This document shows positions 9,792 through 59,740 of a stretch of DNA of 64,000 bases, piece by piece; the stretch's first letter is position 1, and each line of letters begins with the position of its first letter. The position numbers and the translations under genes were made by a program. The notes beneath the pieces were generated by a model. The model saw only the letters and a list, made by a program, of their open reading frames with translations, searched no databases and was not told the DNA's origin. The DNA comes from Callorhinchus milii. Lineage: Eukaryota. The stretch lies in the NCBI RefSeq assembly GCF_018977255.1, contig NW_024704742.1:4466001-4530000 (forward strand), written 5' to 3'.

Positions 9792-10149
9792 CTGGAGTAC
9801 TGTAGCTCAGTGGTTGGAGTGCTCGCATCGCAAGCGAGAGGACCTGGGTTTGATTCCCTGGCAGGACGAAACGTTGGGAACGTTTCCTTACTCCACACGC
9901 TTCTGTTTTCCTGGTTGTTAGTCGATTGGCGGATCGCTTTTCCGGGGGTAATAATCCCTTCAAAAAAATTAATTAAAAAAAATAATAATTTGGTCACTCA
10001 ATCCACGACTGTTTGTGGGACACTGCAATTGGTTGTCGCGATTTGCCCACAAAATATGCAGTCAATTCACTTTGCAGTATATTCTGTGAAGCGCTTTGAG
10101 ACGTCTCGAAGAAGTGAAAAGGCGCTATATCAAATGCAAGGATTATTAT
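9792..10149 (+). mobile_element. tRNA-derived SINE, longer subfamily (similar copies at about 6631-7003, 12770-13110, 28912-29170, 53468-53784)
   Basis: GGAGTACTGTAGCTCAGTGGTTGGAG head; tail GGCGCTATATCAAATGCAAGGATTATT. Confidence 0.88.
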
Positions 10150-20654: not shown

Positions 20655-21795
20655 ATATTTATATATTGCCCTTCACACGAGTAGCATGTCAGAGTACTTT
20701 GACGTCAAGCTAGAAAGAGGTGATCAAAGCACAGTCGAAGAGGAAAGTCTTCTATTATGATTTCAATTTAGGCAAAGAGGGGCAAGACAGAGATTCAGGC
20801 AGAGTTGTTGAAATCACAGCCACGAATGGTGGTGCAGAGGCAAGAGGGGCACACAGAAGACCCAAGGCAGCTGAGTGATGGCTATGGATAGCCCAGTCGG
20901 ATGTGAGCAGAACAGAGGTAGGGAGGAACCAGGGCATGAAGTGATTTGAAATAGAAAGTGAGAATCTTGGGGGAAAAAAAAGATTTGTTCTGCAACATGG
21001 AGCCAGTGGTGCCTAGGAAGGTTTGGGGTGATGGGAGTGTGGAGCCTGCAACAGGTGGGGACACAAGCGGCAAAGTTTTGTAACGTTTGGATTTTGTTTA
21101 CCGTGGAGCAGGGGAGACAGGTGAGGAGGACATTGGAAAAATAAAATCGATAGAACAAAGGTGGGTGTTGTGGTAGAGGAAGGCAGTTCTGGTCAGGGAC
21201 CAGATGTGAGGTAGGAAATATAACTGGGTATCAAACCTGATGCCAAGGTTTGGTAAGTCTGAGGGATAGGAAAGAAAGGTTAAGGAGTTCAGAACCATAG
21301 GTGAGAAGATCTTGATATGAACTGAGAAGGATGGCTTCATTCTTGCTGATGGTCAGCTGCAGAAAGTCTGTGCTCATCCAGGCCTTGATGTCAGACAAGC
21401 AGACAGTCAGAACATCGGTAGGACTGGAGTCACAACTAGAGGAGGAAAAATAGATTTGGGCATCATCTGCATACATGTGGATGTTGACCACATCACAGCA
21501 AATTATATTATTAAAAAGGAGCATGTAAATCAGAAAAATGAGAGGCAGAGGGAACTGTGGTCATAGAGATAGAGAACAGCATTTGTAACCTTGACAGTCT
21601 TAGTGTTGCACCCAGGGCAGAAACCAGACTTGAGGGTCTCAAGAAGTGAGTGGGAGGAAAGATGTAAGTGAAGTTGGGCAACATGTTCCAGGACTTTAGA
21701 AAGGAAGGGCAGGTCTGAGATGGGTTGTAGTTAGGGGAGTTTGACAGATCAAGGGTAGGTTTTTGAGTGGGATGATGATAGAAGTTTTGAATCAC
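20655..21795 (-). mobile_element. L2 LINE, 3' part of ORF2 plus tail (decayed)
   Basis: HMYADDAQIY RT motif; CLSDIKAWM; LQNFAA...TPITPNL..HWL; tail at about 20655-20700. Confidence 0.9.
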
Positions 21796-28600: not shown

Positions 28601-29920
28601 TCAGTACTCACCTTGAGGTCAATCAATCTTGACCAGCTGGATACTGAGTGGAGTGATTAAATGTTATGTATATGCAACTTATTCTTGACCACACTAAATT
28701 TCCTATATTGTTCCAAGACTTGAGATAAATTTCCAGACAGATGCACTCACTTTTGTATGCAAGGCTCTCATGAAACCATCCTTCGTCTAGAAGTTAAGGA
28801 ATTTTTGAATCTTAACTTCTAAGAGATTTAGAAATATGTATTTAAACATGGTTACATTTGCTATTTAGAACAATTAATAGTCTGTTCTTTTTGTGAGGTT
28901 TTGCCTTTATTAGGAGTCGTGTAGCTCAGTGGTTAGAGCACTCGCCTCGCAAGCGAGAGACCTGGGTTCGATTCCCGGTAGGGTGAAATGTTGGGGAAGT
29001 TTCCGGTTGTTAGTCAATTGGCAGATCGCTTTTCCCGGGGTAATAATTCCTTCAAAAAAGAGTAATAATAGTAAATTGGTCACTTCAATCTACGTTTGTG
29101 GAACACTACTGTGCACAAATGGCTGTCAGATTTTGCCCACAAAATACAGTCATTGTATTGACTGTAATTATTTCTTTTTGAATAAATTGCGCAGTCACCT
29201 CCAGTACAAAAGAGATTTTATATCCTAAGGATCCCTTTGGGAACCTTGTTAAAAACTGTTTTTAAAAGATTCTGAAATAAAAAAGGCACTGACTTCCATT
29301 CAGCACAATTCTACAAACCCTATCCCCAAATTTATTATAATTAACAATCCCAATAAACTCACCATACAAATGTAGAGACTTGCTTATAGCTTTGATGTAA
29401 CTACCCATGGATGTAACTACCTATGGTTCCATTTCAACTATGCAATAATGAACCTATATAGCCAGCATGATCTTTATTGTAGTGAGGAACAGGGCTCATG
29501 GATATGCTGTGCCTTACACAAAACCAAAAGGTTTCCCCATGTAAAGACAGAAATATTGGCTAGATCTGTGTGTGTGTGGGGGGGGGGGGGGGAAGAGAAA
29601 GAGGGAGTTAATTAAAGGAAATCCAAAACTTATGCAAGACAAAAATATCAAACATCCTGGACTCTGGCAATCAGAGGGCGGTATCAATATCAACCACCCC
29701 CCTAGGATGCTTTTAAATCAGAATGATACAAGTTCATCAAGTAATCTTTAGCCATAATTTCCCCTTCAGGATGTCTAGCCTTCAGGAGTCTCACTATCAT
29801 TTGCAGAAGGTTATCAAACTCCCTGGAAGATTTAAAGTAGGAGGTTGGCTTGAGGACATGTTTTATCTTATGAAAGATACACCACACTAGTCTGAAAGTT
29901 TGCTCCTTCATGTTAGACCC

Positions 29921-32488: not shown

Positions 32489-34953
32489 CTGATAGTTAAG
32501 GTGAGGGTGGGGGGGAAGAAAGTTAAATATAAAAACCATATTTCATAGCAATTTGAGTACAATTTTATAGTAACTCATCATGATTACTACCAACTTTGAC
32601 AATATTACCAACAAGATATTTAGTAAATATACTGAACTTCAAAATATGTGCAGCAGGAAGTACAGTATTTACATTACAGAAATAATTTGTACACACAGTA
32701 GTGATTCATACTCAAGCTTATTCAACAAAAAATGGCACACTTTCAAGTCAAAATAATTTCAGCAATTAAAGTCATAATTCTTCACAAGCAAAAAGTTTAG
32801 AGGCAAATCTTGAGTTGGACAAAACATTCAGTTCTTTTGAGAGAAGGAACTGAATGTTTTGTCCAACTTCACATTTGCATTCTTATTTCTTAAATAAGGC
32901 ATCACAAATGGGAAATACAGAAATTTAGGTTTTTGACATTTTCCACATTTTGGAAACGCTGTTCGCTTCACTTTGAGCTTTTAAATATTAATCTCTGAAC
33001 AAAACAAAGCCATTCAAATCATACTTTATTCACCATTATTCTAACTTTCCAAGATGCAAAGGTTATTAAGTGCCAAAAGCAGATTTGGAAATGATTCTAC
33101 ATTACAATACAGAATGGACTCTTTAAAAAAAACTTTCCAGTATATTGTATGAAAAACTGAAACAGACATGCTCTGGGACACTACCCTGCGTGAGGAGCAC
33201 TAAATAAATGCAAATTGTTTTTGCAAGGTGCTAATACCAAATAAGGACCATCATTTATTATTAACAAGCAAATTAAATTTCATGAAAGAGTGAGCATCGT
33301 TTCCGCAAAGGTAGTGGTTGCTGTGTTGGTCTGGATGTTAGTTGTCAGATTGCTTTCTGGGGGTAATAACCCCACAAAAATAATAATGCATTTGGTCACT
33401 TACTCCATGACTGTTTGTGGGACACTGCTATGCACAATTGGCTACTGCATTTCACGCACAAAATACACAAGTCAATTCACTTTCCAATATATTCTGTGAA
33501 GCACTTTGAGATGTCTCAATGACGTGAAAAGGCACTGTATCAAATGCGAGGATTATAGGACTATTATTAATCACAGGTCTGGATGGATGTGCGACACAAT
33601 GGGAACATCACAATACATTACATAGATGTCAGATCACTGCAAAATGTTTGGATCAGAATCTATGCTTAGTGCTGCCAGGTTTACATGCATTTACTGGATG
33701 CAATTACATTTCTGTCTTCCCGGGAAAGGTTCGTCCACCGGAGCAGGTTGAAAAATGGGAAACCTTTTTGTAAATCTTGGAACTTCAAAAACTGTTAGAG
33801 GAGTTTTTTTTGCTCTATCCGGTAAGCCAAAACTTAGAAAAGTTGAGCAAGTGCGATATGCTACTGTCAAGTAATGGTGTGCTCCAACAAATCAGAATAA
33901 ACCTCAAGAGGAGATGAAAGGTGCAGATTCTAACCTTTGGCCTCCAGCACATTGTTTTGATTTTAAAAAAATCAAAAAACAGTGGCACTAAATTGCCTGT
34001 TTGTGGAAGAAAGCATTCACCTGTTTCAGCCATTTACACACATTTTGCCAAGATCTCAACATTTTAGCAAAATGACCTCCAACCTTTGTACATTTATAGC
34101 TGCTCTTATTAATGTGGTGCCCTCTGGTGCCTCTCCTCACTGCTCATTACATATGTGAGCCTTTGCAATGCCCCACAATACCTCGCAGATTGGAAAACTT
34201 AAATAGTCATATTTAGTTTGTTAATATTTCTTCAAAGATGCTGTAATGCAGTGGGGTTTTGTTAGTGGCTGGAAATCTAGCTGCATTATGTTTAATATGG
34301 TGGTAGTCCTGTAGCTTAGGTTAGACCAGCTGCCTCGCAAGCGAGAACCTGGGTTCAATTCCCAGGCAGGGCGAAACCTGCAATAGTAATAATCTTTGTA
34401 TTTGATATAACGCCTTATCACGTTTTCAAGACGTCTCAAAGCGCTTCACAGAATATACAGTGAATTGACTGTATTTTGTGGGCGAAAGCAAGTTTCTTTA
34501 CTCCACATGCTTCTGTTTACCTGGCGGTAAGTAGGAATCTGGCTTTCAGTCGATTGGCGGATCGTAATAATCCCATCAAAAAAATAATTTGGTCACTCAA
34601 TCCACGACTGTTTGTTAGACATTGCTGTGCACAATTGGTTGCTGCGTTTTGTCCACAAAAAATATACAATAGCAATGGCGGAGAGGTGTGCAAAGATGAT
34701 CGGAGCAGCGTTGGAGAGAAGACGTGTCCGCTCAGGCACACCTCCGTCTCAGGATGCTTAGCGACAGGCTCAAGATTTGCAGGTGGGAGCAATTTATACC
34801 CAATTTTGTGTTCGGTGCAACATTACAGTGATTCAAAGAGAAAGCGACTCAGCGAGAGAGAGAAGGTAATAACACTCACTGGACTCAGTGGTTTAAGCCA
34901 CGAACAATTCTTAGTTCATTAATTACAAAAATCTAAGTTATAACAAAACTTGC

Positions 34954-43109: not shown

Positions 43110-43439
43110 ATAATAATAATAATAATAATAATAATAATCCTTGCATTTGATATAGCGCTTTTCACGTCGGGAGGACGTCCCAAAGCGCTTCACAGAATAT
43201 ACTGTAAAGTGAATTGACTGTATATTGTGGGCGAACGCGGCAGCCAATTGCGCACAGCAATGTCCCACAAACAGTCGTAGATTGAAAATGACCAATTTAT
43301 TATTTTTTGGGTTTTTTGGAGGGATTATTATTAGGCGTGTGGAGTAAGGAAACTTGCCCAAGGTTTCGCCCTGCCTGGAATTGAACCCAGGTGTCTTGCT
43401 TGCAAAGCAAGTGCTCTAACCACTGAGCTACAGGACTCC
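43110..43439 (-). mobile_element. same SINE, full length
   Basis: tRNA head, body and (ATT)n tail. Confidence 0.9.
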
Positions 43440-44193: not shown

Positions 44194-44463
<270 letters not shown>

Positions 44464-44895
44464 TCAATGTTTCATTAACCTTGTTTCAAAAAGATTTATT
44501 TCACTTTATAAAACGTGTCATTTTAATGTCCAAATAATTTTACTAGCCATCGCCTGCTTTGTTGAGGGGAAGAAGGGTTCATAAAGCAGAGGGTCCTTGG
44601 CAGGCCATCTCAACTGGTGTTCAGGCAGAGCGATTGCTCCCACATCTGATATGGCAGCAAATGTGCCGCTGAAGTCCAGGAGGGATTCTTCTTTCCCTTC
44701 CCCTGGGCAGTCAGTTCCAGCAAGGCATAACCTTCCTCCTGTGCATCAGAAAGTCGTGTACCTAACCACCCACAGGCTTGAGGATGGACAGGTGGATCTC
44801 ATTGCACCATCGCTCTCATCCATACATCACCCTAGTGTTCTGGTCACTGCGCCCACTAAAGCCTTCTCCTGCTGCAGGTTGATCTGAGTTACAGC

Positions 44896-45070
44896 CACCT
44901 GGTTGATCCTGCCATTAGCATATGTTTGTTTCAGAGATTAAGCCATACAAAAAGGACATAGGGTTGGTACAGCAAAACTGCAGTTGGCTTGTTAAATCAG
45001 TTATGGTTCCTTTCAGCACTCCCATCTATTTCTTGGATAAATGGTAATTCCAGAGCTAATACATGCCAAT
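44896..45070 (+). pseudogene. degenerate 18S rRNA 5'-end fragment (about the first 175 nt)
   Basis: Colinear 18S blocks: ACCTGGTTGATCCTGCCA 44897-44914, AGATTAAGCCAT, TTAAATCAGTTATGGTTCCTTT 44992-45013, CTTGGATAA, AGAGCTAATACATGCC 45052-45067. Confidence 0.92.
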
Positions 45071-45091
45071 GACCTGTTAGAGGTCATTGCC

Positions 45092-45150
45092 AAGTGTTCC
45101 GGAACTCTTACCCGTGTGAAAGCCGTTATATAAATGCAAGTTGTTATTGT
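45092..45150 (+). mobile_element. L2-type LINE 3' tail
   Basis: ...GTGTGAAAGCCGTTATATAAATGCAAGTTGTTATTGT resembles the tail at 21938-21990 and the end of the L2 at about 20655-20700. Confidence 0.7.
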
Positions 45151-45247
45151 GGTAGAGATCTTTCAAATTAAGAGGGGTGGTACTTAATGGTCAATGAGGA
45201 AAATTATTTCTGCTGGTTGGTGAGTCAGTGACTAGAGAATATGTTTA

Positions 45248-45445
<198 letters not shown>

Positions 45446-50951: not shown

Positions 50952-51314
50952 TACATTTAAAAGGGCCGATGGCGACTTGGCGAGCTTTGTTACTTTGCTT
51001 CCCTGTATAATTATTTTGCAAATCATTTATATAGTAATTGGCATTAAATAAGTGGGGATGTCAACCACAGAATGATCCCAGGGCTTACAGGTTTAAATTA
51101 TGAGGACACGTCGCATAAACTCGGTCTCGATTCCCTTGAGTTCAGAGGGTTGAGAGGTGATCTAATTGAGGTGTTCCAAATGATTTAAGGGATCGATGGG
51201 GTAGATACAGAGAAACCATTTCCTCTGGTGGGGAATCCAGAACATGGGGCATGATCTTAAAATTACAGCTCGGCCATTTAGGAGTGAAATCAGGAGGCAG
51301 TTTTGCACTCTGGT

Positions 51315-51975
51315 CTCCCCCCCCCACCCCTCTCTGTCCCCCACCCCTCTCCGATCGCCCACTTCTCTGTCCACCCCTCGCTCCTCTCTGAAACCCCCCA
51401 CCCCAACCTCCTCTCTGTCTCCCCCCCCCTCCTCCCTGTCTCCCCCCCCCTCCTCCCTGTCTCCCCCCCCTCCCTCTCTCCTCCCTCTCTCCCCCCTCCT
51501 CCCTATCTCTCCTCCCTGTCTCCCACCCCCTCCTCCCTGTCTCCCACCCCTCCCTCTCTCTTCCCCCCCTCCCTCCTACCTCTCTCTCCCCCCTCCTCCC
51601 TCTCTCTCCCCCCCCTCCTCCCTCTCTCCTCCCTCTCTCCCCCCCTCCTCCCTATCTCTCCCCCCCTCCTCCCTCTCTCTCCCCCCCTCCCTGTCTCTCC
51701 CCCCCTCCCCCCTGTCTCTCCCCCCCTCCCCCCTGTCTCTCCCCCCCTCCCTATCTCTCCGCCCCTCCTCCCTGTCTCCCACTCCCTGTCTCCCACCCTC
51801 CCCCTCTCTCTCCCCCCCTGTCTCCCCCCCCTCCCTGTCTCCCTCCCTGTCTCCCCCCCTCCCTGTCTCCCTCCCTGTCTCCCCCCCCCCTCTCTCTCCC
51901 CCCCTCTCTCTCCCCCCCTCCCTGTCTCCCCACTTTTTTTTCCTGCCTCTCCTTTCACTCTCTCCCCTCCTCCTC
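51315..51975 (+). repeat. polypyrimidine (C/T) low-complexity tract at the 5' end of MELK intron 1
   Basis: About 660 bp of CCCTC/CTGTCT-type units, almost purine-free on +. Confidence 0.95.
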
Positions 51976-51985
51976 CGCCGCTCAC

Positions 51986-52070
51986 CTTTCCTTCCCTCTG
52001 TTGCTGTCCGGAGCGGCCGTTACTCCTCGGGTTGTTGCTGCCGCCGTTTTTTTTGAACTGTTCGAACGCT
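51986..52070 (-). other. MELK: probable non-coding exon 1 (5' UTR) of MELK
   Basis: Strong donor AAG|GTGAGC at 51986/51985 inside a CpG-rich island, just downstream of GC boxes, CRE and CCAAT. The TSS is an estimate. Confidence 0.65.
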
Positions 52071-52185
52071 CGAATCCGGCCCCGCCTCCCGCCCCGCCCC
52101 CTGACGTCACTTCCTTTCCCCGCCCCGCTCCAATCAGATCAAAGCGGGTTGGGCCAACGCGGGGAGGGAGGCGGGGCCAGAGAGA
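52040..52185 (-). promoter_or_regulatory. TATA-less CpG-island promoter of MELK
   Basis: Several GGGCGG boxes; CRE TGACGTCA at 52102-52109 overlapping GGAAGT; CCAAT at 52130-52134; CHR-like TTTGAA at 52052-52057 and TTCGAA at 52061-52066. Confidence 0.75.
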
Positions 52186-52189
52186 GACA

Positions 52190-53180
52190 GACGACGACAA
52201 CAACAACGCCTTGGGTGGACGTCCCGAGGCGCTGGACAGGCGGAGTTACTGACCCGAGCTGAGGGTCCGGGGGGAGGGCAGGCGGAGGAGGGGAGGAGTG
52301 GCACGGGCCAAGAGGAGGGTCTTGAAGGTGGCGAGGGTCGGGGGAGGCCGGGCGGAGGGACGGAGGAGACCGGGCGGAGGGACGGAGGAGGCCGGGCGGA
52401 GGGACGGAGGAGACCGGGCGGAGGGACGGGGGAGGCCGGGCGGAGGGACGGGGGAGGCCGGGCGGAGGGACGGAGGAGGCTGGGCGGAGGGACGGAGGGG
52501 ACGGGGGAGGCCGGGCGGAGGGACGGAGGAGGCCGGGCGGAGGGACGGGGGAGGCCGGGCGGAGGGACGGGGGAGGCCGGGCGGAGGGACGGGGGAGGCC
52601 GGGCGGAGGGACTGAGGAGGCCGGGCGGAGGGACTGAGGAGGCCGGGCGGAGGGACGGAGGAGGCCGGGCGGAGGGACGGAGGAGGCCGGGCGGAGGGAC
52701 GGGGGAGGCCGGGCGGAGGGACGGGGGAGGCCGGGCGGAGGGACGGGGGAGGCCGGGCGGAGGGACGGGGGAGGCCGGGCGGAGGGACTGAGGAGGCCGG
52801 GCGGAGGGACGGAGGAGGCCGGGCGGAGGGACGGAGGGGACGGGGGAGGCCGGGCGGAGGAGGCTGGGCGGAGGGACAGAGGAGACCGGGCGGAGGGACG
52901 GAGCAGGCCGGGCGGAGGGACGGAGCAGGCCGGGCGGAGGGATGGGGTTCCAGAGGGTGGGAGCGGAGTGGCGGAAAAGGCCCGCCCCGGAGCCCCGCCC
53001 AACGGGGTTGGTAGGGGTTTTTAGTGGGGGGGGGGGGTAGTCGAGGGCGTGGAGGGATTTGAAGGCGAGGACCAGGATCTTGAACTGTATCCTGTGTGTG
53101 AGGGGGAGCCAGTGAGTGGAGTCGGGTGGGGATGGGGGTGGAGGCGATGGGGTGGCGGAGCCTGGTGCGGGAGAGGACAC
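52190..53180 (-). mobile_element. L2 LINE 3' end interrupted by the minisatellite
   Basis: HWLPLTHRIQFKILVLAFKSLH and APTLWNPIP match the L2 ORF2 C-terminus; tail CGCCTCGGGACGTCC...GGCG-TTGTTGTTG. Confidence 0.8.
52337..52940 (+). repeat. 22-bp GC-rich minisatellite (GGGACGGAGGAGGCCGGGCGGA)n, roughly 27 units
   Basis: Tandem units are directly visible; translations show a 22-aa period. Confidence 0.95.
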
Positions 53181-56100
53181 GGGGTCCCTGCCCCCGGTGA
53201 CTGGTCTGCCCTTCCAGGTCCTGTCGATGGGCCGGGCCGTCAACAACGGTGCCCTGGAATACCGCAGACCCCAACCGGCTCGGGAACCCGACTGCTGGAG
53301 ACCATCGCAGGCGGTCCTCTTGCTTCCAACCCCAAAAGGAGGGCGGTCACTTGGCATCCGACGAGCCTTGGGTTTGAGCCCCCGCCAGGCGGATGACGGC
53401 CATCAGGAACACCCCTCGAGCTTCGCTTCCGGGTGGGCCACAGCGCAGCTCAGGGCGAAATGCTTCGAGAGCAGGCGGTTAGAGCGCCCACCTCGCAAGC
53501 GAGAGGGCCCTGGGGTTCGATTCCTGGCCGAGACGAAACCACGGGCAAGTTTCCTCACTCGGATCGCTTTTCCGGGGGCAATAATTCTGTCAACAAAAAA
53601 ATTATAATTAAACTGGTCACTTCAATCCACGACTGTTTGTACGGACGCTGCTGTGCGCAGTTGGCTGTCGCGTTTCGCCCACAGAATACGTGGCCAGTTC
53701 GCTTTACAGTATATCCTGTGAAGCGCTTTGAGGCGTCTCGAAGACATGATAAGGCGCAATATCAAATGCAAGGATTATTATTATCTTCCTGCCCACATTC
53801 AGACACGCATCAACACCAACAACAACTTGCATTTATATATGGCGATGATTCCTCTAATTGGAGGTGTGGAGCTTAAGCAGCAGCTGCTTACCTCTCTGCA
53901 AACTAACCCGAGGCACCACCCTGCATGAAGGACACAATAAAAAAAAATCCAAATTGTTGTAATCTTGGCTGATTCCAAGCACTGGATGTTTGAACGTGCG
54001 TTCACGACCTCGGACCACCGCAATCGCCTGCCAACAGCTTTCTCCCCAAGCGTTAGAGTTTCCTCATCAGCTGTCTGATGGACATCTGCCTGAAGGGAGC
54101 ATGACAGCGTGCAACGTGCCAGCCACCTTGATGTTTTCGAGGTCCAAGTTCAATGCCGGATATGGATTGGCTGTGGTTTGGGGGTGATAGGCGGGAGTCA
54201 GTTTGTGCAATATCCCACAAACAGCCATGTCTGTGGAATATTGCTGTGCGCAAACTGGCTGCCGCAAGTGAGTGAGTACAGTTAGGTAAGTGAAAAATTT
54301 TATTAGGGGGATTTGTTGCCCAGGACACCAGGAGAAACTCCGTTCTCTTTTCGAATAGTACCATGGGATCTTTAACGTCCACCTGAACAGGCAGACGGGA
54401 CCTCGTTTTCACATCTCATCCGAAGGACGGCACCTCCATCACTGCATTGGAGAGTCAGCTTAGACTATTCGATTCAAAGTCCTGACGTGGGGCGTGAATC
54501 CACAACCTTCTGACTCAGAGGCGAGCGTGCTACCACATGTGTGGACCATTACAATAAGTTTCTAGATGCCTTGAACAGTGGGAGGTTTAATTATCAGCAC
54601 AGTTAGATGTATGCAGTAACTCTGGGACCAGTGGGATACAGGAATAATTAACTGAGCAACATACACAAAACACAAATCAAAAGCTTGACAGATAAGTGAG
54701 TTGCATGCTTCCCCATGATATAAAATGATATATTTCAACATAATCTATAAGTCACAACATGGCAATTCAATATGCACAACATTTATGTTTGGAACAGTAC
54801 CAAATTGAAGGGATTTTTCCAAGAAAGAAATCCAGTGATTAACATTATCGCAGATCAGACTGGTGAACATTCATTTGATAATATAGTTCACTATTAGACA
54901 CATAAAGTAGTATTAAAATTATAGTACTGGTGGTAGGTGGTTGCAGGAAGTGAGTAAATGTGGTAAATATGAGATGAACAGACAAATTAACTGATTTTGA
55001 TGGGATTTGTCTGATGCAGAAATGTTGGCCAAGACATCAGGAGGATTTACTATTCCTCAACATAAAACCACTGAACTACCAGAATGGGCAGATGGGGCCT
55101 CAGTTTAATTTTTCACTCAAAGGATAGACCTCTAGCGATGTAGCAGTTTCTCCCAAATCCACTGCTCTATCAGTCTAGATTATGAGCTCAAATGTTAACA
55201 TGGGACTTGAACCATAACTGCTGCCAAAGAGCATAAAGTGCCATCAAATGAGCTGCACAGACCAAAATGTTTCTAAGTTTGCATATGCTGATTTAGTTAA
55301 CCTTAAATGAAGGCCTTCGAATCCCCAGGAAAAAAAAAAGACAAAACAGCAGGTGTAATTCCTCCTCTCGATTGCTATCCAGTGAACTTGCTAGAAAATG
55401 TCTGTGCATTTTTGGTGAGGATGGATTGCAGAAATCCCTGGACATTGTCTCAGTTCACATGTAGGACGTCCAGTTGGCCTAGATATTGGAGGACTCCAGT
55501 ACATATGGAAGAGCCCTGGGACATGTTCCCAACATGATAGGCGCTTTACAAATGTAATTTTGCATTGTACTGCAAGAGCACCATAAAATGTGTTGTTGCT
55601 TTAAGAGAAGAGAGCTGAAAATTGGAGTTATTTTGAATCGTTATTAATCATTACCTCACTAACCAGGATAGGAAGTTAATAACACCGGATAGTAAATAAT
55701 AATAATATTCCTTGCATTGATATCGCACCTTAACACGTCGTTGAGACATCTTAAGGCTTTCACAGCATGTACTGTACTGTAAAGTGGTATGACTCTATAT
55801 ATTTGAAGGCAACAGGAGCAGCCAACTTGCGCACATCAATGTCCCACACACATGGAATAAATGACCATTTTATCCAGGAGACTGTTGGCCCCAGGTCCAC
55901 CTGTTCAAATGATGCCACGGAAATTTTAACATTCGTCTGGACAAACAGACAGGACCTCGGTTTAACGTCTCATCTGAAGATGGGTTCTCTGACAATGCAG
56001 CACACTCCCAGCACTGTCAGCTTAAGACTCTGAGACACTACCCTGCGAGCAAGTTGTTGTTGTAGACTTTTATATGTGTTCCAATTCCCAACATGGGGCT

Positions 56101-58704: not shown

Positions 58705-59071
58705 AATAATAACAATCCTTGCATTTGATATAGCGCCTTATCACGTCTTCGAGACTTCTCAAAGCGCTTCACAGAATATACTGTGAATTGACTTAATATT
58801 TGTGGGCGAAAGGCGGCAGCCAATTACGCACAGCAGCGTCCCGCGAACAGTCGTGGATTGAATGACCAAATTATTATTATTATTCTTTTGATGGAATTAT
58901 TACCCCCGGAAAAACGATCTGCCAATCGACTAAACAACCAGGTTCCTACTTACTGTTAGGTAAACAGGCTGTGGCATAAGGAAACTTGCCTTATGTTTCA
59001 CCCTGACGGGAATCTAACCCAGGTCTCTCACTTGCGAGCCGAGCGCTCTAACCACTGAGCTACAGGACTCC
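58705..59071 (-). mobile_element. tRNA-derived SINE, longer subfamily
   Basis: Head, the extra GTTTACCT..AGTAAGTAGG body segment, and tail ...TCGAAGACGTGATAAGGCG. Confidence 0.88.
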
Positions 59072-59440: not shown

Positions 59441-59740
59441 ATAATAATAATCCTTGCATTTGATATAGCGCTTTTCACGTCGGGAGGACATCCCAAAGCG
59501 CTTCACAGAACACACTGTAAAGTGAATTGACTGTATATTTGTGGGCGAACGCGGCAGCCAATTGCGCACAGCAGTGTCACAAACAGTCGTGGATTGAAGT
59601 GACCCAATTTTTTTTTCTTGAGCAATTATTATCAGGGGTGTGGAGGAAGGAAACTTGCCCAAGGTTTCGCACTGCCGGGAATCGAACCCAGGTCTCTCGC
59701 TTGCGAGGCGAGCGCTCTGACCACTGAGCTGCAGGACTCC
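59441..59740 (-). mobile_element. same SINE, full length
   Basis: tRNA head, body and tail with the CTCCC loop. Confidence 0.88.

Follow-up and report, generated by a model that had tools for sequence, protein, structure and literature searches.

How a fragment of 18S rRNA came to lie beside the 3' end of an L2-type LINE, within an intron of the MELK gene of Callorhinchus milii, is the question that this locus raises. A preliminary description of the 64-kb stretch analysed here (the window, part of contig C1 of a 991-Mb assembly) had seen in it an rRNA head followed by a LINE-recognised tail, mobilised by L2, and had gone on to propose unprocessed pre-rRNA as the template and an 18S-derived SINE family as a possible outcome. 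The first of these ideas is supported by our analysis, since the two parts share their orientation, lie 0-17 nt apart and are best fitted by one event. The explanation that we favour, at about even confidence, is a single, very old chimeric retrocopy, for which an L2-type LINE enzyme would have copied L2 RNA and then 18S rRNA up to its mature 5' end.

All parts are contained in an intron of 889 nt, which, read on the minus strand, opens with GT (45298-45297) and closes with AG (44411-44410) (Table 1). These splice sites are predictions drawn from the sequence and the reading frames of the flanking exons, not from transcripts. The translation of the exon downstream of the intron matches residues 89-136 of human MELK with an E-value of 2.8e-25, compared with about 1e-13 for the best non-MELK kinases. 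This exon lies on the minus strand and the repeat-derived parts on the plus strand, and thus the antisense arrangement described previously holds, as does its consequence that MELK pre-mRNA carries anti-18S sequence: it is complementary to the 18S 5' end, with a longest exact run of 29 nt in the alignment with the host 18S. No role is suggested for this stretch, a curiosity with no evident effect on MELK, and the chimera itself, a decayed, single, intronic copy, shows no sign of function.

Table 1. Coordinates of the features discussed, as positions in the window
Feature	Position	Strand	Basis
tRNA-Ala-like sequence	9797-9868	+	
tRNA-Ala-like sequence	28916-28985	+	
tRNA-Ala-like sequence	34306-34373	+	
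tRNA-Ala-like sequence	43367-43436	-	
tRNA-Ala-like sequence	58998-59069	-	
tRNA-Ala-like sequence	59667-59738	-	
MELK exon downstream of the intron, kinase domain	44263..44409	-	reading frame and MELK match
MELK intron containing all parts	44410..45298	-	reading frames, sequence, MELK match
AT-rich remainder of the intron	44410-44544		GC 0.26 for 44412-44544
GC-richer, CpG-poor block, 347 nt, single copy	44545..44891	.	composition, genome search
CAGC, as at the 3' end of the host 5'ETS	44892..44895	+	alignment with host rDNA
Decayed copy of 18S rRNA nt 1-174	44896..45066	+	alignment with host 18S
Junction zone, 17 nt	45067..45083	+	18S and L2 alignments, inverted repeat
3' tail of an L2-type LINE, 5'-truncated, with a terminal GTT-type short repeat	45084..45152	+	nhmmer, alignment
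CR1-like LINE, internal fragment encoding the C-terminal part of ORF2	45153..45238	+	nhmmer, alignment
MELK exon upstream of the intron	45299..45403 (45403 approximate)	-	reading frame ...KIFMILE, then GTAA

Nucleotides 1-174 of the 18S rRNA encoded in the same genome are matched colinearly by the 18S piece, at 80% identity over the aligned bases, which bears out the colinearity from the mature 5' end described earlier (44896-45070, about 175 nt) with a slightly shorter extent. Using as host reference a full rDNA unit from contig C328, blastn (word size 7) returned 77.8% identity over 180 columns (E 1.6e-34), and a global alignment with the host 18S comprised 136 matches, 19 transitions, 15 transversions and 8 gap columns (K2P 0.235). 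G>A (nine) and C>T (four) changes account for 13 of the 34 substitutions, all six host CpGs are lost, four of them to TG, CA or TA, and 27 of 158 non-CpG sites differ from the host. On the sequence evidence, these are the changes of a neutral copy that has long been dead. With Rfam alone, the SSU match stayed below threshold (21.8 bits, E 0.0048; gathering score 50). That match reaches model position 308 by running over the L2 tail and the CR1-like fragment, an extension unsupported by the host alignment.

Detectable similarity sets in at the first nucleotide of mature 18S rRNA. The four nucleotides before it (CAGC) equal the end of the host ETS, so that a longer precursor may have been the source, with no further agreement upstream. 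Across the rest of the C328 unit, blastn (word size 7, E up to 10) found nothing beyond the 18S piece. The host alignment shows no colinearity with the rDNA unit past 18S nt 174, and neither this alignment nor the CR1 profile shows 18S sequence resuming after the L2 tail, where a CR1-like fragment is found instead. Thus, an L2 insertion splitting a longer 18S pseudogene is not seen.

For the LINE part, an nhmmer profile of 12 L2 3' regions matched 45084-45152 (E 3.5e-21, profile positions 1059-1127 of 1132), so that the same-orientation tail described earlier (45092-45150, about 20 nt from the 18S piece) is confirmed and moves closer to it. A genome search with 45067-45150 returned 25 other places (26 of 26 candidates scored). 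When aligned, these 25 tail copies have in common the end motif and the GTT-type terminal repeat, and many of them extend into a shared LINE 3' region; the open frames upstream of the tails carry C-terminal motifs that we take to be those of L2 ORF2. As had been noticed before, the same tail motif closes the minus-strand, YADD-bearing LINE near 20655, whose RVT_1 match is weak (E 0.0037, below the Pfam cutoff).

The zone of 17 nt between the two parts can be read, from its letters, as decayed 18S, as L2 or as filler. As it is readable partly as the first and partly as the second, the gap amounts to 0-17 nt and the junction is direct or nearly so. An imperfect palindrome lies on it (45058-45075 and 45081-45098, with 18-nt arms, 83% complementarity and a 5-nt loop), which could reflect RNA-RNA pairing at the point of a template switch, or chance.

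The closeness of the parts speaks against two or more independent events, i.e., an rRNA or rDNA fragment that reached the intron by whatever route and a separate 5'-truncated L2 copy, older or younger, brought side by side by coincidence or by an insertion hot spot, an explanation that we consider improbable. L2 tails occur about once per 10 kb in the window (four other BLAST matches and the one near 20655), and from this density we estimate that abutment within 17 nt with matching orientation has a chance of about 1 in 1000, or lower. The absence of any 18S sequence after the tail also argues against it. Furthermore, the ages of the two parts are compatible: measured over 45082-45152, the tail departs from the majority consensus in 7 of the 62 usable columns, to be set beside the non-CpG divergence of the 18S piece. 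This comparison carries a bias towards similarity, as the copies behind the consensus had been found by their likeness to this very tail. In favour of independent events, the intron is a patchwork of old repeat fragments, and L2 tails are very abundant in the genome, the tail core reaching a summed contig depth of about 24,000 versus about 9 for the flanks (a sum of contig depths, not a copy number). In addition, L2-type tails are followed within 8-30 nt by the motif TCTTTMAAATT at five other places in the genome versus none in a reversed control, a recurrence that suggests preferred targets. The corresponding region of tail and motif in the window is 45129-45169, and one of the five places (contig C1, locus L038) falls within a CR1-like copy at almost the same position as here. 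The motif may be a preferred L2 target site.

Immediately after the L2 tail, and oriented like it, comes the CR1-like fragment, which had been absent from the preliminary description. It was matched by a CR1-like nhmmer profile with an E-value of 2.1e-17, and alignment with 16 copies places it in the coding region near the end of ORF2, with 17 of 84 columns differing from the consensus (measured over 45157-45243). From its end, about 60 nt lead to the splice donor. Since the fragment is not a LINE 3' end, reverse transcription cannot have begun there, and it is probably target DNA. The upstream half of the CR1 element was, however, not found by the CR1 profile to the left of the insertion, and with the fragment taken as target DNA a deletion of the target must therefore be assumed.

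No convincing direct repeat that could represent a target-site duplication was found with either 44545 or 44892 paired with 45153, and short ones would be unrecognisable after about 0.2 substitutions per site. As nothing of this kind ties the parts together, there is room for two independent insertions or for an origin at the DNA level. One candidate, a 24-nt direct repeat with 71% identity (44458-44481 and 45277-45300), was rejected as being at chance level: by our own binomial estimate, several such pairs are expected in 861 nt. Its second copy overlaps the splice donor.

Whether the element belongs to a family was addressed at the level of the whole 991-Mb assembly. The query 44545-45150 returned itself and 39 rDNA-type places at 77-78% identity (best 40 of 77 candidates), and those 39 cover only query positions 348-528, i.e., the 18S part. 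Searched genome-wide, both the upstream block alone and a 96-nt junction query gave one candidate each, the locus itself, and each of two exact patterns combining a 12-mer of 18S with a 12-mer of the tail occurred at one place in 991 Mb. A looser pattern (9-mer and 11-mer) occurred at six other places. No 18S similarity was detected in 48 other non-rDNA loci, most of them with an L2-type tail, which comprise the 25 tail loci, 17 further ones (mostly CR1-like) and all six places of the looser pattern. The genome search scores only the best candidates and skips very common words, and very decayed copies could escape it, although nothing in the results points to any.

The count of loci with the same 18S-to-tail junction, suggested together with the idea of an 18S-derived SINE family, thus comes to this locus only, and the idea is refuted by it within the sensitivity of the searches used. 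The L2 tail does provide the 3' end in common with a partner LINE that is expected of a SINE, and of the several dispersed copies sharing a head-tail junction that are also expected, only this one was found. The head-plus-LINE-tail layout, and the existence of rRNA-derived SINEs of the 5S types and of SINE28 (PMC4994717, PMC10946416), are what would speak for membership in a family mobilised by L2. Against these stand the single-copy junction and the 48 loci free of 18S similarity, and we consider such membership to be close to negligible in probability. 18S rRNA is a product of Pol I. A further point against membership is that no Pol III promoter is known from the 5' region of 18S.

The locus is also present in other individuals. 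In two further samples of Callorhinchus milii, one contig of 2249 nt spans the whole stretch with two base differences, and in a third further sample the stretch is covered in pieces; since contigs of these samples span it, it is not an assembly artefact. The contig depth of the block and of the 18S piece equals that of the single-copy flanks. The base differences from the assembly are a C>T at 44703, seen in four of four runs, and a G>A at 45055, seen in two of the three runs that cover the position.

rDNA-derived sequences of a different kind were encountered elsewhere in the genome. Contig C174 (locus L054) holds a tandem array of truncated rDNA units with a period of 3.3-3.6 kb, present at 25 or more places among the matches listed. 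Each unit consists of a 5'ETS of about 0.9 kb, which shares 94.7% identity with the canonical unit, of IGS subrepeats and, from the 18S, of nt 1-561 only (Rfam model positions 4-605). It has neither 5.8S nor 28S, and the array has the appearance of a satellite with its origin in the 5' end of the rDNA unit.

Such DNA-level rearrangement of rDNA gives some ground for a direct capture of DNA, in which a break took up a piece of rDNA (spacer together with the start of 18S), whether as a copy or by relocation, and dispersed, degraded rDNA units are described from human (PMC5381670). We nevertheless hold this to be quite improbable, below the coincidence of independent insertions. The 18S similarity breaks at nt 174 where the LINE tail starts, a signature of reverse transcription, and this truncation differs from that of the C174 units (nt 561). 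Moreover, no spacer similarity was found in the block upstream of the 18S piece.

This block is the part of the locus on which the nature of the template depends. It was correctly described as GC-richer and CpG-poor and as standing out from the AT-rich intron: its GC content is 0.53, versus 0.26 for the rest of the intron on its side and 0.41 for the whole window, its CpG observed/expected ratio is 0.25 and its TG/CA excess 1.42. Within the window, 5% of 347-nt windows reach a GC content of 0.53. The longest GC-rich stretch lies at 51086-53777, where 347-nt windows stay at or above 0.53 over 2.7 kb.

The block was compared with several candidate sources. It had no hit in Rfam at E up to 1, its four ORFs matched 0 Pfam families, a protein database search restricted to near lengths gave four candidates of which none scored, and a 75-aa minus-strand ORF matched only itself. 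A coding sequence or a known RNA was hence rejected on the Pfam, Rfam and protein database results. An upstream half of the CR1-like element was likewise rejected, as nhmmer --max with an 8-copy profile matched only 45153-45238 here. A 100-aa plus-strand ORF had 15 weak six-frame matches (E 0.07-9.3), and the one that was fetched (L089) is the C-terminal region of L2 ORF2 read out of frame. In Smith-Waterman comparisons with the 12 L2 3' regions the block stayed at shuffle level (z from -1.0 to 1.6 on the plus strand). An L2-18S-L2 mosaic in which the block would be L2 ORF2 3' region was thus rejected, the resemblance being compositional and the L2 profile matching the tail only. As a separate observation, a 158-nt contig (depth 5.1) from one run guessed to be RNA maps inside the block, at 44647-44804. 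The same run has nothing elsewhere in the single-copy parts of the intron, and no splice sites lie at the ends of the contig, which we treat as a lead and not as evidence of expression.

If the L2 enzyme had copied unprocessed Pol I pre-rRNA, the block would be the 3' third of an ancient 5'ETS and its presence would need no extra switch, one fewer than a tripartite chimera. This possibility, which we treat as tentative and place well below the favoured one, draws on the composition of the block, in which the GC content, the loss of CpG and the TG/CA excess are in keeping with a GC-rich spacer that has decayed (in the host ETS, which is about 0.9 kb long, the final 500 nt have a GC content of 0.61 and a TG/CA of 1.44) and set it apart from the AT-rich rest of the intron. 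It also draws on the CAGC just upstream of 18S nt 1, the end of the host ETS. The direct comparisons, on the other hand, do not support a 5'ETS identity. The BLAST of the block against the species' own rDNA unit that had been put forward for this purpose (blastn, word size 7, E up to 10) found no similarity to host ETS, IGS, ITS or 28S, leaving the four nucleotides CAGC as the only agreement. A Smith-Waterman alignment of the block with the 4 kb upstream of 18S scored 30, within the shuffle range (24.6 +/- 3.3, maximum 39, 60 shuffles). An alignment anchored at the 18S boundary and extended into the ETS was not significant: its score was reached by 14 of 300 shuffles under strict scoring and by 5 of 300 under transition-lenient scoring, and among real GC-rich segments of the window by 18 of 227 and 30 of 227, respectively. 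In addition, pre-rRNA is far rarer than mature 18S rRNA.

These comparisons were made with the present-day host ETS only, and spacers evolve fast, turning over by indels as well as by substitutions. Because an ETS can change beyond recognition over the time in which the 18S piece decayed, with the pseudogene branch alone amounting to about 0.2 substitutions per site, the missing match between block and ETS settles little.

Returning to the single chimeric retrocopy from L2 RNA and mature 18S rRNA, the event would have proceeded by target-primed reverse transcription in the MELK intron. The L2 enzyme would have copied the last 70-85 nt of L2 RNA, continued on 18S rRNA from about nt 174 and run off at nt 1. 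The move to 18S may have been a template switch, or may reflect the copying of an 18S RNA already ligated to an L2 fragment. The product, of about 255 bp (44896-45152), would then have been fixed and have decayed neutrally, never acting as a source gene. Under this scheme, the block would not be rRNA and would represent either a third template or older intron or repeat DNA, and the CR1-like piece would be target DNA. Two observations count against a template ending at the mature 5' end: the CAGC before the 18S start would be unexpected, and the GC content of the block is unlike the AT-rich intron and close to a decayed ETS.

The layout of the locus is like that of published LINE chimeras, and from this we infer the same process for an L2-type enzyme. 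Among the closest cases are 18 chimeras of 28S rRNA and L1, 83% of them in sense orientation, which their authors put down tentatively to template switching or RNA ligation (bioRxiv 10.1101/2025.02.02.635956). As there, the MELK locus has an rRNA fragment of a few hundred nucleotides fused in sense orientation to a LINE 3' part, in what would be a single insertion. In contrast to these chimeras, the rRNA is 18S (the main text of that report has 0 occurrences of "18S"), an L2-type LINE of a cartilaginous fish takes the place of L1, the rRNA is represented from its 5' end onwards, and the event is far older. The bipartite and tripartite LINE chimeric retrogenes of PMC2104539 (U6/L1, WEIRD-MGL, B2-U6-L1) likewise have a 5' part reaching the 5' end of a cellular RNA, and their 3' part is the end of a LINE that lacks its 5' portion; where the template is changed twice, a third part can be added upstream. 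These chimeras were, however, validated in that report by flanking direct repeats of 10-20 bp, of which none is convincing at the MELK locus, and the possible third part here, the block, differs from those of the tripartite chimeras in having no identifiable source.

Two other classes share single features with the locus. SINE28 is also large-rRNA sequence dispersed by LINE machinery; it is multi-copy, with 27 loci in human, is reported to possess Pol III promoter motifs and to be transcribed, and was repeatedly re-derived, whereas the MELK-intron element exists once, in decayed form and with a LINE tail (PMC4994717). Dispersed rDNA pseudogenes are also rRNA-like sequences outside rDNA arrays under neutral decay. 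Being relics formed at the DNA level, with IGS and extended parts of the unit among them, they are unlike the present case, in which only 18S nt 1-174 is recognisable and adjoins a LINE tail (PMC5381670). Word searches of open-access full texts found no 18S as LINE-chimera partner or as SINE head, the rRNAs appearing there being 5S and 28S, and the covered part of a review table of rDNA-derived elements lists no 18S-derived SINE (PMC10946416). The head of PittSINE is derived from tRNA-Asp and not from 28S.

On these comparisons, the locus most likely belongs with the LINE chimeric retropseudogenes, an already known class. It would be a clear example from outside mammals and outside L1, in which an L2-type enzyme joined its own RNA tail to rRNA, and such chimeras are thought to be the raw material from which SINE heads arise (PMC5729268, PMC2104539). 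Should the block instead be an ETS fossil, which we consider doubtful, an L2 enzyme would have captured and reverse-transcribed unprocessed pre-rRNA. LINE RNPs would then sample nucleolar precursors, the intron would preserve spacer sequence far older than any in present rDNA, and the locus would represent a founder-type head-plus-tail that could have yielded an rRNA-derived SINE and did not. With the block proved to be ETS, it would stand as an unusual record of pre-rRNA retro-copying.

Retroposed sequences with a different RNA head may also occur in the window, where six tRNA-Ala-like sequences were found, three on each strand. The one nearest to the intron scores 56.7 bits as a tRNA, and the repeat to which it belongs continues to about 43130. 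These sequences are probably the heads of a tRNA-Ala-derived SINE family.
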